DNA of 64,000 bases from Patescibacteria group bacterium. GTDB lineage: Bacteria; Patescibacteriota; Patescibacteriia; JACRDY01. The notes beneath the pieces were generated by a model. The model saw only the letters and a program-made list of their open reading frames with translations. It had not been told where the DNA came from and did no database searches. Positions 6,068 to 12,148 of this stretch are shown here, one piece after another. The DNA lies in assembly GCA_041653535.1 (NCBI GenBank), contig JBAZFH010000002.1, positions 173,011 through 237,010 of the forward strand, read 5' to 3'. The first letter of the stretch is position 1. Each line of letters starts with the position of its first letter. The translations under genes and the position numbers were made by a program.

Positions 6068-6391
6068 ATGTCTGAGATTATATTAGATGACAAAAATTTT
6101 GAGGCAGAAGTACTCGCCTCTGACGTGCCGGTGCTTGTAGATTTTTATGCCGTTTGGTGCGGTCCGTGCAAAATACAGGGGCCGATGATTGATGAATTAG
6201 CCGAGGAGATGAAGGACCAAAAAGTAAAAATCGCCAAACTGGACGTTGACAAAGCGCCGGAATTTTCCCAGAAATACGAAATTATGTCTGTTCCTACCTT
6301 GATTATTTTTAAAGGCGGGCAAATAGTCGAACGCATGACTGGGATGAGAACAAAAGAGGAATTAAAAGAAAAGTTGGAAAAGTTAATATAA
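6068..6391 (+). CDS. trxA: Thioredoxin.
   Basis: 107 aa with the WCGPCK active site. Confidence 0.95.
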   Translation: MSEIILDDKNFEAEVLASDVPVLVDFYAVWCGPCKIQGPMIDELAEEMKDQKVKIAKLDVDKAPEFSQKYEIMSVPTLIIFKGGQIVERMTGMRTKEELKEKLEKLI

Positions 6392-6418
6392 TATAATAAG
6401 TTTTTAGAATATTTTAAA

Positions 6419-6445
6419 ACTCCGTTTATTGGGCGGAGTTTTTTA
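6419..6445. terminator. Bidirectional intrinsic terminator shared by trxA (+) and the TrmB-like gene (-).
   Basis: ACTCCG-TTTATTGGG-CGGAGT, a perfect 6-bp stem with TTTTTT downstream and AAAA upstream. It overlaps the stop codon of the minus-strand gene. Confidence 0.65.
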
Positions 6446-7211
6446 ATATTATCCCGCTAGACACGGACCACAATCCTTCAAATATCGCGAGCATGGTATC
6501 GTGAAATTCTTTTGATTGGATTAGTACTGCCGACAGTTCTTTGAGTGAAGAAATAATCAGCACTTTGTCATCGTAAATATCGATGACTGAAGAAAATTTT
6601 CCGTACATTACCGGCGGCAGGACGCGAGGGTTGCGTTCCAGGAGCTGTTGCGGGGTCATTAGTTTTTGACTTTCTTGGTATTCCCAGAGCGATCGGCTGG
6701 TAATACCTTTGGCTTGGCGGGTTTCCACGAAATATTTGGCGTAATTTTTATCAAATTCAGAAAAAAAGTTTTTAATGGGAGAAATAATATCCCAGTGTTT
6801 TGATTTGCAGTAGAGTGCGTCTTCGATTACTGTTTTTACGCCCTCGATCCCTTCATAGTGATAGACGCTGATTTTATTTTCCGGCTGTTCCATGCTTTGT
6901 AGCAGGAGCGGGATAATAGCGGAGATTTCACCTTTTTGTTTTTCTAGCATTCTAATTTTTTCTTGGAGCAGGTTTTGGATGTTTTTCGGGTCGGTGGCGG
7001 TGAAAAGTATTTTTTGTCCGGAAATTTTTTTCCCGACCAGTCCCTTGTCTGTCAAAGTGCCTAGGGCGTGATAAATTGTCGTCCGGTTAACGTTGGTTTG
7101 TTTGACCAGTTCATTTACCCCGATCGTCGAGTATTTCAAAGCAGCGAGGTATATCTTTACTTCAGTTTGCGTCAGACCTAGATTTTTTAGAGAGTCGGTG
7201 ATTTGGGACAT
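6426..7211 (-). CDS. TrmB-family transcriptional regulator (sugar-responsive HTH regulator family).
   Basis: An N-terminal winged HTH (LGLTQTEVKIYLAALKYSTIGVNELVKQTNVNRTTIYHALGTLTDKGLV) followed by a C-terminal TrmB-type domain. The start is set at the internal ATG (MSQITDSL...) rather than the ORF-track 7310 start, whose N-terminal 33 aa are low-complexity. Confidence 0.7.
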   Translation of the reverse strand: MSQITDSLKNLGLTQTEVKIYLAALKYSTIGVNELVKQTNVNRTTIYHALGTLTDKGLVGKKISGQKILFTATDPKNIQNLLQEKIRMLEKQKGEISAIIPLLLQSMEQPENKISVYHYEGIEGVKTVIEDALYCKSKHWDIISPIKNFFSEFDKNYAKYFVETRQAKGITSRSLWEYQESQKLMTPQQLLERNPRVLPPVMYGKFSSVIDIYDDKVLIISSLKELSAVLIQSKEFHDTMLAIFEGLWSVSSGIILKNSAQ

Positions 7212-7464
7212 ATTGGTAGTTGGTAGATGGTAGTTGGGGATTAGGGTCAAGAGAAATAAGAAATTGGAAATGACTATTATAATAATATTAGTTATTGATG
7301 GTTTTGTCAAAGATTGTTTGTAATGAAATATATTTAAAATTAGATAAAAAATTTATTTGTTTATCAATAGTTATAAACACATATTAACACTTTTGGTATT
7401 TAGCTGTTAAATATAGGTGGAAAAAGAACATTAAAAATTGAAACAAACAAAAAGGAGGATAACG

Positions 7465-8349
7465 ATGATTATCGATGTCCATACCCATACTACTACGCAC
7501 GATCTGTGGGATTTACATACCAAAACCGCCACACTGACCGATCTGGAAGGATTGGCCGCGCAGTACGACGTCAGGAAAATCATCCTGATGGCAACGTATT
7601 TTCCGACCAAAGGCACGGGACTGCACAATTTGGATCTGCTGCGCCGAATCGGAGAAAGCAAACTTTTTGCCATGTGCGCCAGTCTAAACGCTATGACTGC
7701 TGACGGTCTACACATCGGTCTGCAGGAGATCAGCCTCTTGGCGCGAGAAAAAATGATCGTCGGGATTAAGCTCTATCCCGGTTATCAAAATTTTCACCTT
7801 TCCGATCGACGAATCGATCCACTGTATGAGCTCGCGGAAAAGTATCGTTTGCCGGTGACGGTTCATACCGGTGAGTTGCATCACTGCTGCCCGGTCAAAG
7901 ATCGGGGAGAGGGTCGCGGTCGCTGCGGTCAAGTCTGCCCGATTGACGAGTGGCAAAATTTGGCGCGACCGTCGCAGATTATCGAAGCAGCGACACGCTT
8001 TCCCGAAGTCAATTTTGTGCTGGCACATCTGGCCAATCCCTACTTCAGTGAGTTGCTGTATGACGTGATGGCAGTATTGCCAAACGTCTACACGGATATT
8101 TCCGGACAGTTTCGTTCGGGAACAGAAGAAGCGACTGAGGAATACAAAGATGAAGTGTTGGCGCAAATCAAAATGTTTATTTCGTCAGGGCAAGCCGGCA
8201 TCGATCGAGTGATGTTTGGTACAGACTTTCCTATTCAGTCTTACGCCGACACGGTTGATTTCGTGGAACGGCTGGGACTAGGTAAAGAAGACAAGGAAAA
8301 AATCTACTGGCGTAACGCCGCAAGGCTGTTTGCGTTGGATATAGGGTAA
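7465..8349 (+). CDS. Metal-dependent amidohydrolase (TIM-barrel, amidohydrolase_2-like).
   Basis: The MIIDVHTHT N-terminal His motif, later HTGE and HLANPY motifs, and a C-terminal FGTDFP. The start is moved to the ATG at 7465, which has AAAGGAGG 7 nt upstream; the ORF track began at TTG 7438. Confidence 0.7.
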   Translation: MIIDVHTHTTTHDLWDLHTKTATLTDLEGLAAQYDVRKIILMATYFPTKGTGLHNLDLLRRIGESKLFAMCASLNAMTADGLHIGLQEISLLAREKMIVGIKLYPGYQNFHLSDRRIDPLYELAEKYRLPVTVHTGELHHCCPVKDRGEGRGRCGQVCPIDEWQNLARPSQIIEAATRFPEVNFVLAHLANPYFSELLYDVMAVLPNVYTDISGQFRSGTEEATEEYKDEVLAQIKMFISSGQAGIDRVMFGTDFPIQSYADTVDFVERLGLGKEDKEKIYWRNAARLFALDIG

Positions 8350-8360
8350 GGAGACGGAAT

Positions 8361-9056
8361 ATGGAAAGAAAAAGAATTTTGGTTACCGCCGGGTCCACAG
8401 TAGTGCCTATTGATCAGGTGCGAGTTATTTCCAATATCTTTAAGGGCAAAACCGGAACGGCTATTGCTGCACATTTTGCAGAGCGAGGACACGGCGTGAC
8501 TTTGCTCACCTCAAATCCAGAGCTGCTTGAAGATTACCGCGAGATCAGCAATGGCTGGAATATTCAGGTGGTGAAATTCCGGACGTTCAACGACCTGGCT
8601 AGCGCAATGAAAAAGCTGATCACTGCCGGCGCATATGACATGATCGTTCATTCGGCCGCAGTCAGCGACTATCAGGTCGCTCAAGTACTGACGAAAGATG
8701 TAGGAGGTCAGTTGTTGCCACTAGACGCTGGTACAAAAGTTTCTTCTCGGCACGGCAAGCTGTATCTGGAAATGGTGCCGACAGCAAAATTGATCGACAA
8801 GATTCGGACCGATTGGGGTTTTGCCGGCTATCTGGTCAAGTTCAAACTGCAGGTGGGAATCGGCGACGGAGAGCTAGTCAATATCGCCCGTCAGAGCCGA
8901 GCTGATTCGGCATCAGACCTAATCATCGCCAACTGTCTGGAGTGGGCCGCTCAATATGCCTATGCTATTGGGTCTGATAATACGGCAGAGAAAATTTCGC
9001 GGGAAAAAATCGGCGAGACGATTGAAAGGAGGGCGGGTTGGTATGACGAAAAATAA
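8361..9056 (+). CDS. coaB: Phosphopantothenate--cysteine ligase, stand-alone CoaB domain.
   Basis: 231 aa, ILVTAGSTVVPIDQVRVISNIFKGKTGTAIAAHFAERGHGVTLL...HSAAVSDY, the DFP C-terminal (CoaB) signature. An AAGGAG RBS lies upstream. Confidence 0.8.
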   Translation: MERKRILVTAGSTVVPIDQVRVISNIFKGKTGTAIAAHFAERGHGVTLLTSNPELLEDYREISNGWNIQVVKFRTFNDLASAMKKLITAGAYDMIVHSAAVSDYQVAQVLTKDVGGQLLPLDAGTKVSSRHGKLYLEMVPTAKLIDKIRTDWGFAGYLVKFKLQVGIGDGELVNIARQSRADSASDLIIANCLEWAAQYAYAIGSDNTAEKISREKIGETIERRAGWYDEK

Positions 9057-9702
9057 AGTTTTACTCGGGCTGACTGGGAGTGTAGCTTCCAAGCTCGACA
9101 GGCAAATTGTGGCAGCGCTAAAAGCAGAAGGTTGCGAGGTGATCGTTGTTCCAACTATTGCTTCGCTGTATTTCAGCTGGTCTCTCAAGCTCGAGTTTGT
9201 TAAAGCGTTGCTAGCAAGCAAGCTTGGCTTACTTGGTAGGATGTTAGCGCGGGTAATCGAGCTATTGTTTCCAAGCAAACTCGGAGCGCCGGTAGTTACC
9301 GATGCCGCCGAATGGCGCGGACTCAACTACAAAAAAAATATGCCGATCGAGCATATTGTCTTGCGCGACTGGGCTGATGTGCTGGTAATCGCGCCGCTGT
9401 CGGCTAACACGCTTGGCAAAATCGCAAACGGTCTAGCAGACAATCTACTGACTTGTATTGTCCGCGCTTGGGATCCGGCCAAACCAGTTGTGCTGGCACC
9501 GGCTATGAATACCAAGATGTGGCAGTCGTCGTTTACCGCAACGCACTTGCAAAGTTTGAAAAATATTTTTCAGCTGTGTGTAGTGCCACCGGTAAGTAAA
9601 AAGTTGGCTTGCGGCGATGAAGGAGTTGGTGCACTGGCTGCTATTACTGACATCGTCGCTGCTGTCGGCGTTGCCACAAAATCGTCTCTCGACGTTGTCT
9701 AG
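9043..9702 (+). CDS. coaC: Phosphopantothenoylcysteine decarboxylase, stand-alone CoaC flavoprotein (HFCD family).
   Basis: VLLGLTGSVAS...VLVIAPLSANTLGKIANGLADNLLT...VLAPAMNTKMW...ACGDEGVGAL. Start moved to ATG 9043 (GAAAGGAGG RBS); the ORF-track 8956 start is an out-of-context extension. Overlaps the coaB stop by 14 nt. Confidence 0.75.
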   Translation: MTKNKVLLGLTGSVASKLDRQIVAALKAEGCEVIVVPTIASLYFSWSLKLEFVKALLASKLGLLGRMLARVIELLFPSKLGAPVVTDAAEWRGLNYKKNMPIEHIVLRDWADVLVIAPLSANTLGKIANGLADNLLTCIVRAWDPAKPVVLAPAMNTKMWQSSFTATHLQSLKNIFQLCVVPPVSKKLACGDEGVGALAAITDIVAAVGVATKSSLDVV

Positions 9703-9733
9703 TTGCAAATAACCTGAAAAAAAGGAGCGGTCA

Positions 9734-9991
9734 ATGGAAGCGTACAAAACAGTTTGTCCAGATTGCGGCTATGTCCGGTTTTGGACCGGTTGGAAAACCG
9801 GTTTGGGCAAGACCAAAGAACAGCTGGAACAGATGAGCCGTGATTTCAAGACATGCAAGAAATGCGGTTCGGTTAACGCCAAAACCGGTTCTGACCGTGA
9901 GTCTGAAATAGGCCGCGATTTTGCTGCCATGGACAAAGAGGCAGTGCGAGTCATTGGCGATTTTATCAAAGAACGGTTGGGGGTAAAATAG
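9734..9991 (+). CDS. Small zinc-ribbon protein (CxxC...CxxC), function unknown.
   Basis: 85 aa with CPDCG...CKKCG. AAAGGAG RBS 5 nt upstream. Confidence 0.6.
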   Translation: MEAYKTVCPDCGYVRFWTGWKTGLGKTKEQLEQMSRDFKTCKKCGSVNAKTGSDRESEIGRDFAAMDKEAVRVIGDFIKERLGVK

Positions 9992-9992
9992 A

Positions 9993-10250
9993 ATGAAAGT
10001 CCGTGTTTATGGAGAAGATAAGGCAGGACTTGTCGCTGATACAACGGTGATTCAAATAACGTGTCCGCATTGCAACAGCGATCTGGACGTGACTTTTAGC
10101 GACATCAGTCGTTGTGCCGGTTTTCGTCACGATGTAGATGCTTGCGGAGTAAGGACTTGCTGCGGTGCCTGCAATCAGTATTTTCTCATTTCGCAAGACA
10201 AGATGCCAAAAAATTGGCTAAAGGCGTTATTTCCGCCTGATGAGTTTTGA
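9993..10250 (+). CDS. Small Cys-rich protein (CPHC...C...CCGAC), function unknown.
   Basis: 85 aa. The start is 1 nt after the previous stop, so it is probably translationally coupled. An intrinsic terminator follows. Confidence 0.55.
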   Translation: MKVRVYGEDKAGLVADTTVIQITCPHCNSDLDVTFSDISRCAGFRHDVDACGVRTCCGACNQYFLISQDKMPKNWLKALFPPDEF

Positions 10251-10352: not shown

Positions 10353-10724
10353 ATGTACAGAGACATTGAACCGGATGGACGCGTCCGCAGCGTTCTTTTC
10401 GCGGGATGGCTGGTTGTTGTGGGGTTGATGATCACCGTATTCTTTTTTCACATTTTAGGAAAGGTTGCTTGGGGGTTGTTTATTGCTCTTTATTCTTTGC
10501 CCTGGTGCATTTGGGGGTTTGTCACTATCGGCGCTTATGTTTTGCAGTTTAAAATGAACATGACGATGGGTAGTGGCAGTAAGGAAAAAAAAGAAGATTG
10601 GCGACGCGGCGGCAACAGACGGTACAGATATTCTGGTATTCCGGGGGGAAATTCCAGTGGTCTTTGGAATCAAGGTCGGGTTTGGGATCCGGAAAAAAAC
10701 CAATGGGAAGAAAAAAAGGAGTAA
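10353..10724 (+). CDS. Small membrane protein with two TM helices and a Gly/Arg-rich tail, hypothetical.
   Basis: 123 aa. AAAGGAGGG RBS. Hydrophobic stretches LFAGWLVVVGLMITVFFF and LFIALYSLPWCIWGFVTIGAYV. Confidence 0.6.
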   Translation: MYRDIEPDGRVRSVLFAGWLVVVGLMITVFFFHILGKVAWGLFIALYSLPWCIWGFVTIGAYVLQFKMNMTMGSGSKEKKEDWRRGGNRRYRYSGIPGGNSSGLWNQGRVWDPEKNQWEEKKE

Positions 10725-10758: not shown

Positions 10759-10983
10759 ATGAACCGCGTTAAGCAAGAGCCAAAACCCGGCAGAAAGTGC
10801 GTTCTTTGCGGTATGCCGCTGAGTATGTACAATCCAAACAATCAGTGTTTTTGTCATCAAACAGGGTTGAAAAACGACCCCTTGTTTCTACGAGTAGAAA
10901 AAACTGGTTGTTTTTCAACTGGAATTCGGGGCTTCGATTTTCGTCGGACCATGTCCGACTACGAAGGAAGATCGGTTGATTAA
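10759..10983 (+). CDS. Small Cys-containing protein, hypothetical.
   Basis: 74 aa with CVLCG...CFCH. GAGGAGGGG RBS. A strong terminator follows. Confidence 0.5.
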   Translation: MNRVKQEPKPGRKCVLCGMPLSMYNPNNQCFCHQTGLKNDPLFLRVEKTGCFSTGIRGFDFRRTMSDYEGRSVD

Positions 10984-10989
10984 AAATCT

Positions 10990-11026
10990 ATCCGCCCGAT
11001 ACACTAGTCGGGCGGATTTTTATTTT
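10990..11026 (+). terminator. Intrinsic terminator.
   Basis: TCCGCCCGA-TACACTAG-TCGGGCGGA, a perfect 9-bp stem followed by TTTTTATTTT. Confidence 0.8.
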
Positions 11027-11206: not shown

Positions 11207-12148
11207 ATGGAAAATCAATACGATGTTGTCATCGTCGGTGGCGGTCCGGCTGGTATCGTTGCCGCTATTTATGCCGCGCGTAAACAATTAAATACCGTTA
11301 TTATCACCCCTGACCTCGGCGGTCAGATGGCGATTACCAACCATATAGAAAATTACCCCGGTTTTGAAAATATTTCCGGTCCAGAGTTGGTAAACAAATT
11401 TCGTTTGCAGGTGGAAAAGCTGGGCGGTAAATTTATTTTTGATCAAGTCGTCGGTATAGAGCCGGTTGACAGTATTTTTAAAGTCAAAACTTCTGGCAGG
11501 GAATTTATGACTCGAACAGTTGTCCTGGCTTTTGGTTTGACACCACGAGGGCTAGATGTTCCCGGAGAAGAAAAGTTTAAAGGACGCGGTATCGCTTTCT
11601 GTGCTACTTGTGACGCGCCGCTTTATAAAGGAAAAACCGTGGCAGTAGTTGGCGGTGGTAACAGCGCGATGGAAGCTATTACCGAGTTGTCTAAAATCGC
11701 TACCAAAGTTTATGCCACGCATCGCGGCGACAAATTTAGCACCGCTGATCCAGTCGAAGTAGAAAAGATTAGTGGTTACGCCAATGTCGAAGTGATGTTG
11801 AACAGTGAAATCACAGGGTTTATCGGGGATAAAAAATTAGAAAAAATTTTGGTTCATAATAATAAAAATGAAAAGCCGGATTTTGAGTTGGCGGTCGACG
11901 GCGTGTTTTTAGAAATCGGTTACGTGACTAAAACCGACTGGCTAAAAGGGTTTGTGGATATTGATGAAAAAGGACATGTATTAATCAATGAAAAGGCCGA
12001 AACTTCTCGACCCGGCGTTTATGCCGCTGGTGATGTGACCAATACGACTTATAAACAAATTGTTATTTCCGGCGGCGAGGGTGCCAAAGCCGCGTTGTCA
12101 GCTTATAAATATTTAAACAACTCCAAAACGGTTACGCCGGATTGGTAG
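11207..12148 (+). CDS. trxB: Thioredoxin-disulfide reductase.
   Basis: 313 aa with the VVIVGGGPAG FAD motif, the CATCDA redox-active disulfide and the GGGNSA NADPH motif. Confidence 0.95.
   Translation: MENQYDVVIVGGGPAGIVAAIYAARKQLNTVIITPDLGGQMAITNHIENYPGFENISGPELVNKFRLQVEKLGGKFIFDQVVGIEPVDSIFKVKTSGREFMTRTVVLAFGLTPRGLDVPGEEKFKGRGIAFCATCDAPLYKGKTVAVVGGGNSAMEAITELSKIATKVYATHRGDKFSTADPVEVEKISGYANVEVMLNSEITGFIGDKKLEKILVHNNKNEKPDFELAVDGVFLEIGYVTKTDWLKGFVDIDEKGHVLINEKAETSRPGVYAAGDVTNTTYKQIVISGGEGAKAALSAYKYLNNSKTVTPDW

Follow-up and report, generated by a model that had tools for sequence, protein, structure and literature searches.

A stand-alone CoaB/CoaC gene pair beside a putative metal-dependent hydrolase or, in sister loci, a TANGO2-family protein in Patescibacteria

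Organisms in the candidate phyla radiation (CPR) and in DPANN are thought to scavenge most of their cofactors, and an isolated pair of genes for CoaB and CoaC is a partial coenzyme A (CoA) pathway without an obvious source of substrate. That question is raised by a locus in a stretch of 64,000 nucleotides (the window) from a Patescibacteria group bacterium (GenBank assembly GCA_041653535.1, contig JBAZFH010000002.1, positions 173,011 to 237,010 of the forward strand). Window positions 6426-10250 hold a minus-strand TrmB-like gene and, on the plus strand, the genes for an amidohydrolase (the hydrolase), CoaB and CoaC, followed by two Zn-ribbon open reading frames (ORFs). An earlier note, made from the window sequence, had suggested that the hydrolase could supply or trim the substrate of the operon, for example by acting on a pantetheine-like compound. 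This appears to us the best-supported reading of the locus, because the synteny is conserved and because a TANGO2-type amidase replaces the hydrolase in sister loci.

We evaluated the conservation of the arrangement by a profile search with the hydrolase in one genome per species, which gave 36 loci, 32 of them evaluable. The order hydrolase, CoaB, CoaC on the same strand was present in 27 of the 32, and the labels of these loci include Parcubacteria/Paceibacteria, Falkowbacteria, Magasanikbacteria, Uhrbacteria and Buchananbacteria. Three archaeal-labelled (DPANN) loci have hydrolases that are 30-38% identical and still lie beside Flavoprotein and DFP genes. The genes that flank the operon vary between loci, the order of the three genes is permuted in one Falkowbacteria locus (L006), and several loci show 4-nt overlaps among them. 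The gene order recurs in dozens of unrelated contigs and the arrangement is far beyond chance.

We then searched the loci for further partners. All-against-all clustering of the ORFs in both locus sets revealed no recurrent partner beyond the regulator and a minority Zn-ribbon, and thus no transporter or kinase; PanK, CoaD and CoaE were likewise not recurrent near the operon in the neighbourhood clustering. Searches by tblastn with E. coli CoaD and CoaE and T. maritima CoaX found no match in the window, and no CoA genes were found in the extra flank of about 5 kb and about 3 kb past the window ends. The same probes matched only one of the first 42 loci, L042. The match at positions 42-1010 of that contig is a 322-aa ORF in which a phosphopantetheine adenylyltransferase (PPAT, CoaD; 3e-16) is fused to a P-loop kinase-like domain in a way that recalls COASY. 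Behind it come an ORF for a membrane protein of 131 aa and what is left of an amidohydrolase gene, a C-terminal remnant of 46 aa (1527-1667). In the archaeal-labelled locus L038 a NUDIX gene (9364-9939) separates the flavoprotein gene from the DFP gene; its best NCBIfam match, a weak one, is CoA pyrophosphatase, and its LMLRRA...FPGEWVFPGG segment resembles the NuCoA motif. Some operons also encode a 669-aa methyltransferase. Five loci have an accessory protein that combines a degenerate DFP-like domain with a class-II-aldolase/MtnB/AraD-like domain in which the VHGH metal motif is kept (L006 2797-4794, L007 5360-7117, L014 9560-11314, L024 3610-4803 and L039 8773-9879). This protein is either free or fused to CoaC (L007 and L014), and in L006 a fusion of CoaB, aldolase-like and methyltransferase parts replaces CoaB.

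We approached the locus from the side of CoaB as well, by looking up three CoaB homologues and scanning metagenomes with a CPR CoaB profile, and counted the 21 metagenome loci in which CoaB was at least 46% identical to that of the window and enough flanking DNA was present. The amidohydrolase was found in 15 of these loci and a TANGO2-family gene in the other six; no locus had both and none had neither. The locus L046 reproduces the layout of the window with TANGO2 (6235-6999) in the hydrolase slot, in the order TrmB (minus strand), TANGO2, CoaB and CoaC. No TANGO2 gene was found in the first 42 loci, which include the 36 hydrolase-derived genome loci. The family assignment is solid: five loci matched the TANGO2 Pfam family (PF05742) with 66-91 bits against a cut-off of 22.6, the proteins begin with MCTLIV and contain the NRDE motif, and a comparison with the crystal structures of human TANGO2 gave 3e-8. 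Beside CoaB homologues that are less closely related, most of them on high-GC contigs, there is usually neither this hydrolase nor TANGO2. In six of these loci (L089, L098, L099, L108, L118 and L119) a gene for a lipoprotein-like protein with an HExxH...EGLAEY metalloprotease-like signature lies upstream of the distant CoaB, which may reflect synteny peculiar to a lineage and not a third kind of partner hydrolase.

The alternation of two unrelated folds in one slot is a classic sign of non-orthologous displacement: the slot is required, and its function lies within reach of both folds. The TANGO2 family and the hydrolase of the window are analogous and not homologous; fold and catalytic machinery are unrelated, and TANGO2 is absent from the window itself. 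The roles proposed for TANGO2 are those of a heme chaperone, an acyl-CoA binder and a putative N-terminal nucleophile (Ntn) hydrolase. Two papers on TANGO2 are silent about any operon or gene neighbourhood. A crystal structure study of 2026 presents the human protein as a putative Cys-Ntn hydrolase and compares it with bile-salt hydrolase, a cleaver of N-acyl glycine and taurine conjugates (PMC13044924). It has also been reported that TANGO2 binds acyl-CoA (PMC11867700), and that vitamin B5 relieves TANGO2 deficiency, for which a defect in CoA salvage was proposed (PMC11179719). These links to CoA and vitamin B5, and the putative amide hydrolysis, belong to a family that shares its operon slot with the hydrolase beside CPR-type CoaB and CoaC. 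On the side of the amidohydrolase superfamily, a PDB title names PTER as an N-acetyltaurine amidohydrolase.

CoaB matched the Pfam family DFP (PF04127) over residues 2-196 with 97.5 bits against a cut-off of 22. The earlier note had made its reading depend on the retention of the CTP-binding residues by CoaB, and all nucleotide and ligase motifs were kept. Within the N-terminal motif TxGxTxxxID.VR.I.N...G..G, residues T9, G11, T13, I17, D18, V20, R21, I23, N25, G29, T31 and G32 are invariant in 19 sequences; R21 and N25 we take to be R206 and N210 of E. coli Dfp, used in the second half-reaction. Further invariant positions are AAVSDY (99-104), K126...S129, FKL (161-163) and AN (190-191), and the Lys of the K(I/V)xS motif is presumably the catalytic K289 of the E. 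coli enzyme. The best PDB matches were the CoaB-type protein of S. pneumoniae (2gk4, 2e-14), human phosphopantothenoylcysteine synthetase (PPCS, 2e-10) and the CoaB of E. coli and Mycobacterium (1e-7). CoaB is, by these motifs, an intact nucleotide-dependent ligase that would join L-cysteine to 4'-phosphopantothenate. It belongs to a CPR clade of about 1000 proteins, the best 120 of which are short stand-alone proteins 49-58% identical to the CoaB of the window.

CoaC matched the Pfam family Flavoprotein (PF02441) with 99 bits against a cut-off of 22.7. We considered the possibility, raised by the earlier note against itself, that the flavoprotein groups with the lantibiotic-type decarboxylases of the homo-oligomeric flavin-containing Cys decarboxylase (HFCD) family. 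The CoaC type was upheld, with matches to AtHAL3a at 1.2e-41 and to human phosphopantothenoylcysteine decarboxylase (PPCDC) at 5e-40, as against 2e-9 for EpiD and 9e-9 for MrsD; mycobacterial CoaBC gave only 2e-12. The nearest relatives beyond CPR in the databases are fungal PPCDCs, with 45-48% identity, and across the substrate clamp CoaC is 45-53% identical to fungal and plant PPCDC. Residues H104, N156 (PAMNTKMW) and C190 (LACGD) are invariant in 16 sequences and align with H90, N142 and C175 of AtHAL3a; the C175S mutant chain of AtHAL3a (1mvl) aligns at the position of C190. The clamp Cys reduces the enethiol and sets PPCDC apart from EpiD and MrsD. CoaC is thus, on sequence type, an intact decarboxylase of the flavin mononucleotide (FMN) type and of the eukaryotic PPCDC type, the product of which would be 4'-phosphopantetheine. 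The closeness of the CPR proteins to eukaryotic PPCDC suggests an old transfer or a shared origin and is an evolutionary curiosity.

The insertion in CoaC that the earlier note had described relative to E. coli Dfp is present, with a length of about 30 aa (residues ~46-75) and not about 50 when compared with AtHAL3a and the nearest insertion-free homologues. In the AlphaFold2 (AF2) model it forms a helical hairpin with helices at 46-60 and 62-75 and a predicted local distance difference test (pLDDT) of about 90. Only part of the CPR CoaC proteins have the insertion, which is variable in length, and AtHAL3a, fungal PPCDC and many CPR homologues are without it.

Both enzymes scored well below the NCBIfam equivalog cut-offs, CoaB with 104 bits vs 265 for coaB_strep, 98.5 vs 217 for PRK06732 and 88 vs 220 for coaBC_dfp, and CoaC with 107 vs 261 for coaC_strep and 117 vs 220 for coaBC_dfp. 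Because these scores are so far under the thresholds we file CoaB and CoaC as family members and not as equivalogs of the Firmicute or Dfp proteins. For CoaC, the low scores are consistent with its eukaryote-like sequence type.

The hydrolase was identified as a full-length member of Amidohydro_2 (PF04909; 111 bits against a cut-off of 26.4) with the (beta/alpha)8 barrel, and its AF2 model has a pLDDT of 94. Its family is about 50% identical across CPR lineages, with 298 relatives at E <= 1e-5 in one database and 107 cluster representatives at E <= 1e-30 in another. By sequence, its strongest match in the PDB was the uncharacterised BB4693 (3irs, 1.5e-8) and the sole NCBIfam match fuconolactonase, with 18 bits against a cut-off of 400. 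Its structural neighbours are generic, at 14-26% identity, and include an uncharacterised 'dihydroorotase family' protein, followed by the COG3618 and LigI lactonases and then by Amidohydro_2 decarboxylases. Residues H6/H8, K102, H134, H188 and D254 are invariant and lie at the predicted ends of strands 1, 4, 5, 6 and 8, and the metal-ligand residues are kept in distant archaeal homologues too. Their spacing is presumably that of E. coli dihydroorotase (H16/H18/K102/H139/H177/D250), as are the local KLYP and VHxGE motifs. The protein is a predicted dihydroorotase-like, probably binuclear metallo-amidohydrolase; its ligand pattern resembles that of binuclear enzymes in which a carbamylated Lys forms the bridge. 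BB4693 and 3nur lack the strand-4 Lys and have Asn and Leu at that position.

A metal-dependent hydrolase is favoured over a decarboxylase because of this ligand pattern, including the strand-4 Lys. The known Amidohydro_2 proteins (the ACMSD, gamma-resorcylate, LigW and IDCase decarboxylases, LigI, fuconolactonase and BB4693) are 14-26% identical to the hydrolase of the window, which differs from them in combining the strand-4 Lys with His at strands 5 and 6 in a dihydroorotase- or phosphotriesterase-like binuclear pattern. A decarboxylase of the ACMSD/LigW type was rejected on an identity of only 14-19% and on the different ligand pattern, with Lys at strand 4. The CPR hydrolases add an HHCC..C..C loop behind strand 5, and since archaeal members are without it, the Cys-rich loop is probably structural and not catalytic. 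A search for fusions of the hydrolase in 1.84 billion representative proteins, of which the five longest matches were checked, gave a radical SAM domain as the only fused partner; the protein, P0386, is a 609-aa Amidohydro_2-Radical_SAM fusion among the distant family members. The contig L044 (Ga0209163_1000176) does not look like CPR and encodes a 54%-identical amidohydrolase with three family-III CoA-transferases, an acyl-CoA synthetase, an enoyl-CoA hydratase and a PocR sensor protein as neighbours.

We propose, tentatively and as something short of probable, that the hydrolase cleaves a pantetheine-type amide to give 4'-phosphopantothenate, from which CoaB and CoaC rebuild 4'-phosphopantetheine, and that TANGO2 does the same job in sister genomes. 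The proposal was made because the operon contains exactly the two enzymes for the cysteamine end of the molecule and no kinase. The bond attacked would be the pantothenoyl-cysteamine amide, and the candidate substrates are forms of 4'-phosphopantetheine that have been oxidised, S-modified or scavenged, possibly after release from CoA. PANK4/DUF89 acts on oxidised 4'-phosphopantetheine, which is recognised as a product of damage (PMC8669784). Cleavage would yield 4'-phosphopantothenate, the substrate of CoaB, so that no pantothenate kinase would be needed, and a new cysteamine thiol would next be put on by CoaB and CoaC. As a whole, this would be a salvage or 're-thiolation' loop for the vitamin B5 moiety in organisms unable to make pantothenate, and a TANGO2-family Cys-Ntn hydrolase would perform the equivalent step elsewhere. 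The pantetheine amide, pantothenoyl-NH-CH2-CH2-SH, is a plausible target because both folds are known for the hydrolysis of non-peptide amides, as in bile-salt hydrolase and PTER. The NUDIX gene of L038, the CoA-gene neighbours in L044 and the PPAT-kinase fusion in L042 may be cited as CoA-linked hints. We regard the stronger form of the proposal as doubtful: that hydrolase, CoaB and CoaC are a self-contained 'cysteamine-replacement' loop that regains 4'-phosphopantothenate from phosphopantetheine or CoA when these are spent or damaged and re-thiolates it, that the TANGO2 family are (phospho)pantetheine amidases, and that this is how CPR and DPANN members keep CoaB and CoaC without a pantothenate kinase.

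Several findings weigh against the proposed loop. The position of CoaB and CoaC below the equivalog cut-offs would fit related enzymes with a different substrate. No characterised close relative of the hydrolase was found in PDB, NCBIfam or the structure comparisons; its metal-site pattern is deduced from strand positions only, and hydrolysis of an ester or lactone is equally allowed because the fold neighbours comprise lactonases, decarboxylases, hydratases and amidases. Distant members of the hydrolase family are paired or fused with a radical SAM enzyme. About 15% of the hydrolase loci (L008, L027, L032, L033 and L035) are without CoaB and CoaC, and their neighbours, a radical SAM enzyme, an acetamidase/formamidase, a DSP phosphatase and uncharacterised proteins, offer no consistent clue; in L008 the radical SAM gene (6898-7899) overlaps the start of the amidohydrolase. 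The evidence on PanK, CoaD and CoaE in genomes that bear the operon comes down to one short contig, L042, and the DFP-like/aldolase-like protein, the methyltransferase and the Zn-ribbon are left unexplained by the loop.

Among the other explanations, the least unlikely, and an unlikely one still, is an ordinary partial CoA pathway, with CoaB and CoaC as steps 2 and 3 after a kinase encoded elsewhere, in which the hydrolase frees (phospho)pantothenate from some other conjugate or lactone, or L-cysteine from a dipeptide or cyclic precursor. Replacements of the TANGO2 Cys-Ntn type are known for the cleavage of linear amides and not of lactones (PMC13044924), the neighbourhood has no recurrent transporter or kinase, and a supply of cysteine fails to explain why the linkage is to CoaB and CoaC alone. 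A closed cycle that makes cysteamine, as a small thiol or a precursor, would use the same three enzymes: phosphopantothenate would be the carrier to which CoaB ligates cysteine, CoaC would decarboxylate the product, and the hydrolase would release cysteamine at the cost of one CTP/ATP per turn. The content of the operon, exactly a ligase, a decarboxylase and a hydrolase with no other gene of the CoA pathway, speaks for such a cycle, as do the methyltransferases alongside in some loci and the thioredoxin and thioredoxin reductase genes that flank the operon in the window. We nevertheless find it improbable, since the redox-gene flanks are not conserved elsewhere, cysteamine has no known use in CPR, and the relief that vitamin B5 brings in human TANGO2 deficiency (PMC11179719) fits a loss of the B5 moiety better. 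A shade less probable again is a thiol metabolite unrelated to CoA, made by CoaB- and CoaC-like enzymes on another phosphorylated carboxylate and tailored by the DFP-like/class-II-aldolase-like protein and the methyltransferase. Both enzymes score under half of the NCBIfam equivalog cut-offs, a second DFP-like and an aldolase-like domain are fused to CoaC in L007 and L014, and in L006 the fusion replaces CoaB; against this, the substrate clamp of CoaC retains its 45-53% identity to fungal and plant PPCDC, and the accessory genes, which the window lacks, occur in no more than about 6 of about 31 loci.

That the hydrolase is a functionally unrelated neighbour, merely co-inherited with coaB and coaC, is in our view very improbable. 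Some hydrolase genes do stand alone or in other contexts, but the adjacency is kept at 30-55% identity of the enzymes and among unrelated flanks, it outlasts the permutation of gene order in L006 and is accompanied by 4-nt overlaps in several loci, and the slot is refilled by a different hydrolase family and not left empty. Least credible of all, to the point of being nearly negligible, is a pathway resembling that of ribosomally synthesized and post-translationally modified peptides (RiPPs), with a Zn-ribbon protein as precursor or carrier peptide, a CoaB-like enzyme adding a C-terminal cysteine and an HFCD enzyme decarboxylating it. It would account for the small Cys-containing ORFs in the operon, and HFCD enzymes such as EpiD and MrsD, which are among the matches, decarboxylate peptidyl-cysteine in lantibiotic pathways; yet the matches of the flavoprotein to PPCDC are better by 30 orders of magnitude than those to EpiD or MrsD, and it keeps the reducing Cys specific to PPCDC. 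The hydrolysis of a pantetheine-type amide ahead of CoaB and CoaC stays our preferred reading.

Parts of this system resemble known ones. Separate coaB and coaC genes are not unusual, as is known from the stand-alone coaB_strep and coaC_strep models of NCBIfam. The CoaB and CoaC of Streptococcus and Enterococcus (TIGR02114, TIGR02113) and the eukaryotic PPCS and PPCDC are likewise a separate ligase and decarboxylase that share the catalytic motifs; unlike the Firmicute pair, the CoaB of the window falls in a separate CPR clade, and some members of the CoaC group have the helical-hairpin insertion. The CPR-clade pair always comes with a hydrolase gene, and to our knowledge there is no report of such a linkage for the genes of Firmicutes or eukaryotes. 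The bifunctional Dfp/CoaBC protein (TIGR00521), found in most bacteria and archaea, agrees in its two domains and in the reactions that they catalyse, whereas here the domains are unfused and the gene order coaB-coaC is the reverse of the domain order in Dfp. Vanin/pantetheinase and PANK4-DUF89 are similar in the proposed pantetheine-type chemistry and the recycling of the pantothenate moiety; vanins, however, are members of the nitrilase superfamily that act on extracellular, unphosphorylated pantetheine, DUF89 is a phosphatase, and neither is encoded beside PPCS or PPCDC genes. We found no description in the searchable literature of the pairing of CPR-clade CoaB and CoaC with a hydrolase or of this operon, nor of the dihydroorotase-like Amidohydro_2 subfamily, the conserved TrmB operator or the TANGO2 alternation.

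If the proposed reaction is correct, a dedicated hydrolase yielding 4'-phosphopantothenate would close the substrate gap in these organisms and represent a new salvage or repair branch of CoA metabolism. The alternation of TANGO2 and the amidohydrolase beside coaB-coaC is independent comparative-genomic evidence that TANGO2 acts on the head group of pantetheine or CoA, and the CPR operons suggest specific substrates. On the stronger reading, a human disease protein would gain a concrete, testable biochemical function. The window alone is a solid and moderately interesting operon; the displacement by TANGO2 raises its interest by making the question of TANGO2's job directly testable.

We examined how the operon might be regulated. 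The earlier note had placed a TrmB-family regulator in divergent orientation across an AT-rich region of about 250 bp, and this agrees with the 253 bp found, which have a GC content of 24.5% compared to 40.5% for the window. The match to Pfam TrmB (50 bits, cut-off 25.6) covers only the N-terminal helix-turn-helix (HTH) at residues 41-109. No Pfam family, and so not the C-terminal sugar-binding domain of archaeal TrmB/TrmBL1, was found over residues 110-294, and the TrmB/TrmBL1 equivalogs gave 22-25 bits where the cut-offs are 600-650. The reading frame extends back to a TTG at 7310. The gene most likely starts at Met34 (7211) and not at that TTG, because its homologues, which are 46-66% identical, all align from residue 33/34 and because a minus-strand promoter of the sigma-70 type, TTGACA-17-TATTAT (11-of-12), lies at 7310-7282, inside the longer ORF. 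A TrmB gene is divergent to the operon in 11 of the 36 genome loci and in further metagenome loci, and in the archaeal-labelled loci L038 and L039 the corresponding divergent gene encodes an AbrB/MazE-domain protein.

A conserved element, TATAAACACATAT, was found with at most one mismatch in 8 of 12 TrmB-bearing loci and with at most three mismatches in 11 of the 12, at 70-274 nt upstream of the start codon and in every case on the strand of the amidohydrolase. It appeared again in four more TrmB-positive metagenome loci, occurs once only in the window, and was not found in the TrmB-less loci (512 kb searched), bar one likely chance match. In the window, L022 and L028 the element is the right arm of a dyad and abuts a TTAACA-17-TATAAx promoter, listed for the window as TTAACA-17-TAAATA; a Shine-Dalgarno sequence, AAAGGAGG, precedes the ATG of the hydrolase. 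We read the element as a candidate operator of the TrmB-like protein, which most likely controls the operon by binding a conserved operator at the operon promoter. Operator and regulator together would be a tractable handle on gene regulation in uncultivated CPR bacteria. In L046 the intergenic region between TrmB and TANGO2 (6070-6234) has, in place of TATAAACACATAT, a perfect dyad TTCATAA-N4-TTATGAA, which may be a variant operator for a 46%-identical regulator. An Rfam scan of the full 64 kb found no tRNA or other family at the gathering score, and a known riboswitch in the leader is unlikely for that reason.

All four genes were confirmed at the positions first given, and an independent gene caller reproduced the calls on an identical public contig, in agreement with the separate coaB and coaC ORFs, coaB first, that the earlier note had described. 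The tight junction between the hydrolase and coaB stands, with a spacer of 11 nt (TAA 8347-8349 to ATG 8361) and not the 12 first given, and the Shine-Dalgarno sequence AAGGAGA of coaB overlaps the stop codon of the hydrolase. The start of coaC overlaps the end of coaB, as claimed, by 14 nt (ATG 9043; coaB stop 9054-9056). Judged from these junctions, translation of coaB and coaC is coupled, both between the two genes and with the hydrolase gene upstream. The length of 231 aa for coaB was right; that of coaC was corrected from 220 to 219 aa. The features are collected in Table 1.

Table 1. Features of the operon and its surroundings (window coordinates)
Feature	Position	Strand	Basis or detail
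TrmB-family winged-HTH regulator	6426..7211	-	261 aa from Met34; Pfam TrmB 2.5e-13
Divergent promoter/operator region, AT-rich, 24.5% GC	7212..7464	.	GC content, promoter motifs
Candidate TrmB operator, dyad TGTTTAT-N8-ATAAACA	7354..7384	+	conserved core TATAAACACATAT at 7372-7384
Amidohydro_2 TIM-barrel metal hydrolase, 294 aa, uncharacterised subfamily	7465..8349	+	Pfam 111 bits
Stand-alone CoaB (phosphopantothenate-cysteine ligase), 231 aa, CPR clade	8361..9056	+	Pfam DFP 1.1e-27
Stand-alone CoaC (phosphopantothenoylcysteine decarboxylase), 219 aa, eukaryote-like	9043..9702	+	Pfam Flavoprotein 99 bits
CoaC lineage-specific insertion, residues ~46-75	9178..9267	+	alignment; AF2
Zn-ribbon ORF 1, 85 aa	9734..9991	+	CxxC...CxxC; sub-threshold Zn-ribbon Pfam matches
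Zn-ribbon ORF 2, 85 aa	9993..10250	+	profile HMM 2.4e-27
Terminator-like hairpin, strong	10990..11017	+	11-bp stem, 7 GC pairs, T-run

Zn-ribbon ORF 1 is packed closely behind coaC, with a Shine-Dalgarno sequence, AAAGGAGCG, ahead of its ATG, and has no counterpart in the other loci examined. ORF 2 starts 1 nt past the stop of ORF 1 and is homologous, by alignment, to a 70-77 aa accessory ORF that lies between the hydrolase and coaB elsewhere. A profile search of the first locus set recovered the ORF 2-type Zn-ribbon in no more than 7 distinct loci, all of them TrmB-positive; given this count and a variable C-terminus, a LysW-like carrier or precursor peptide was rejected as its identity. The transcription unit may end at the hairpin. 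Ahead of it lie two small ORFs without annotation (10353-10724 and 10759-10983), which makes its membership of the operon uncertain; these ORFs encode a 123-aa protein with a hydrophobic N-terminal region and a 74-aa Cys-rich protein, neither of which matches any family.

The GC content is 48-50% (0.52-0.55 at third codon positions) in the hydrolase, coaB, coaC and Zn-ribbon ORF 1, compared to 40.5% for the window and 40-45% for the flanking genes, and this high-GC island (7465-9991) may mark a horizontal acquisition. The thioredoxin (6068-6391) and thioredoxin reductase (11207-12148) genes flank the operon here only, and flanks are not conserved in the other loci. Further along, positions 22000-60000 contain about 35 plus-strand genes in a nearly unbroken run, with N-termini resembling those of glycosyltransferase, sugar epimerase/dehydratase, methyltransferase and large membrane (GT-C/AftD-like) genes, and they look like a very large cell-envelope glycan cluster.

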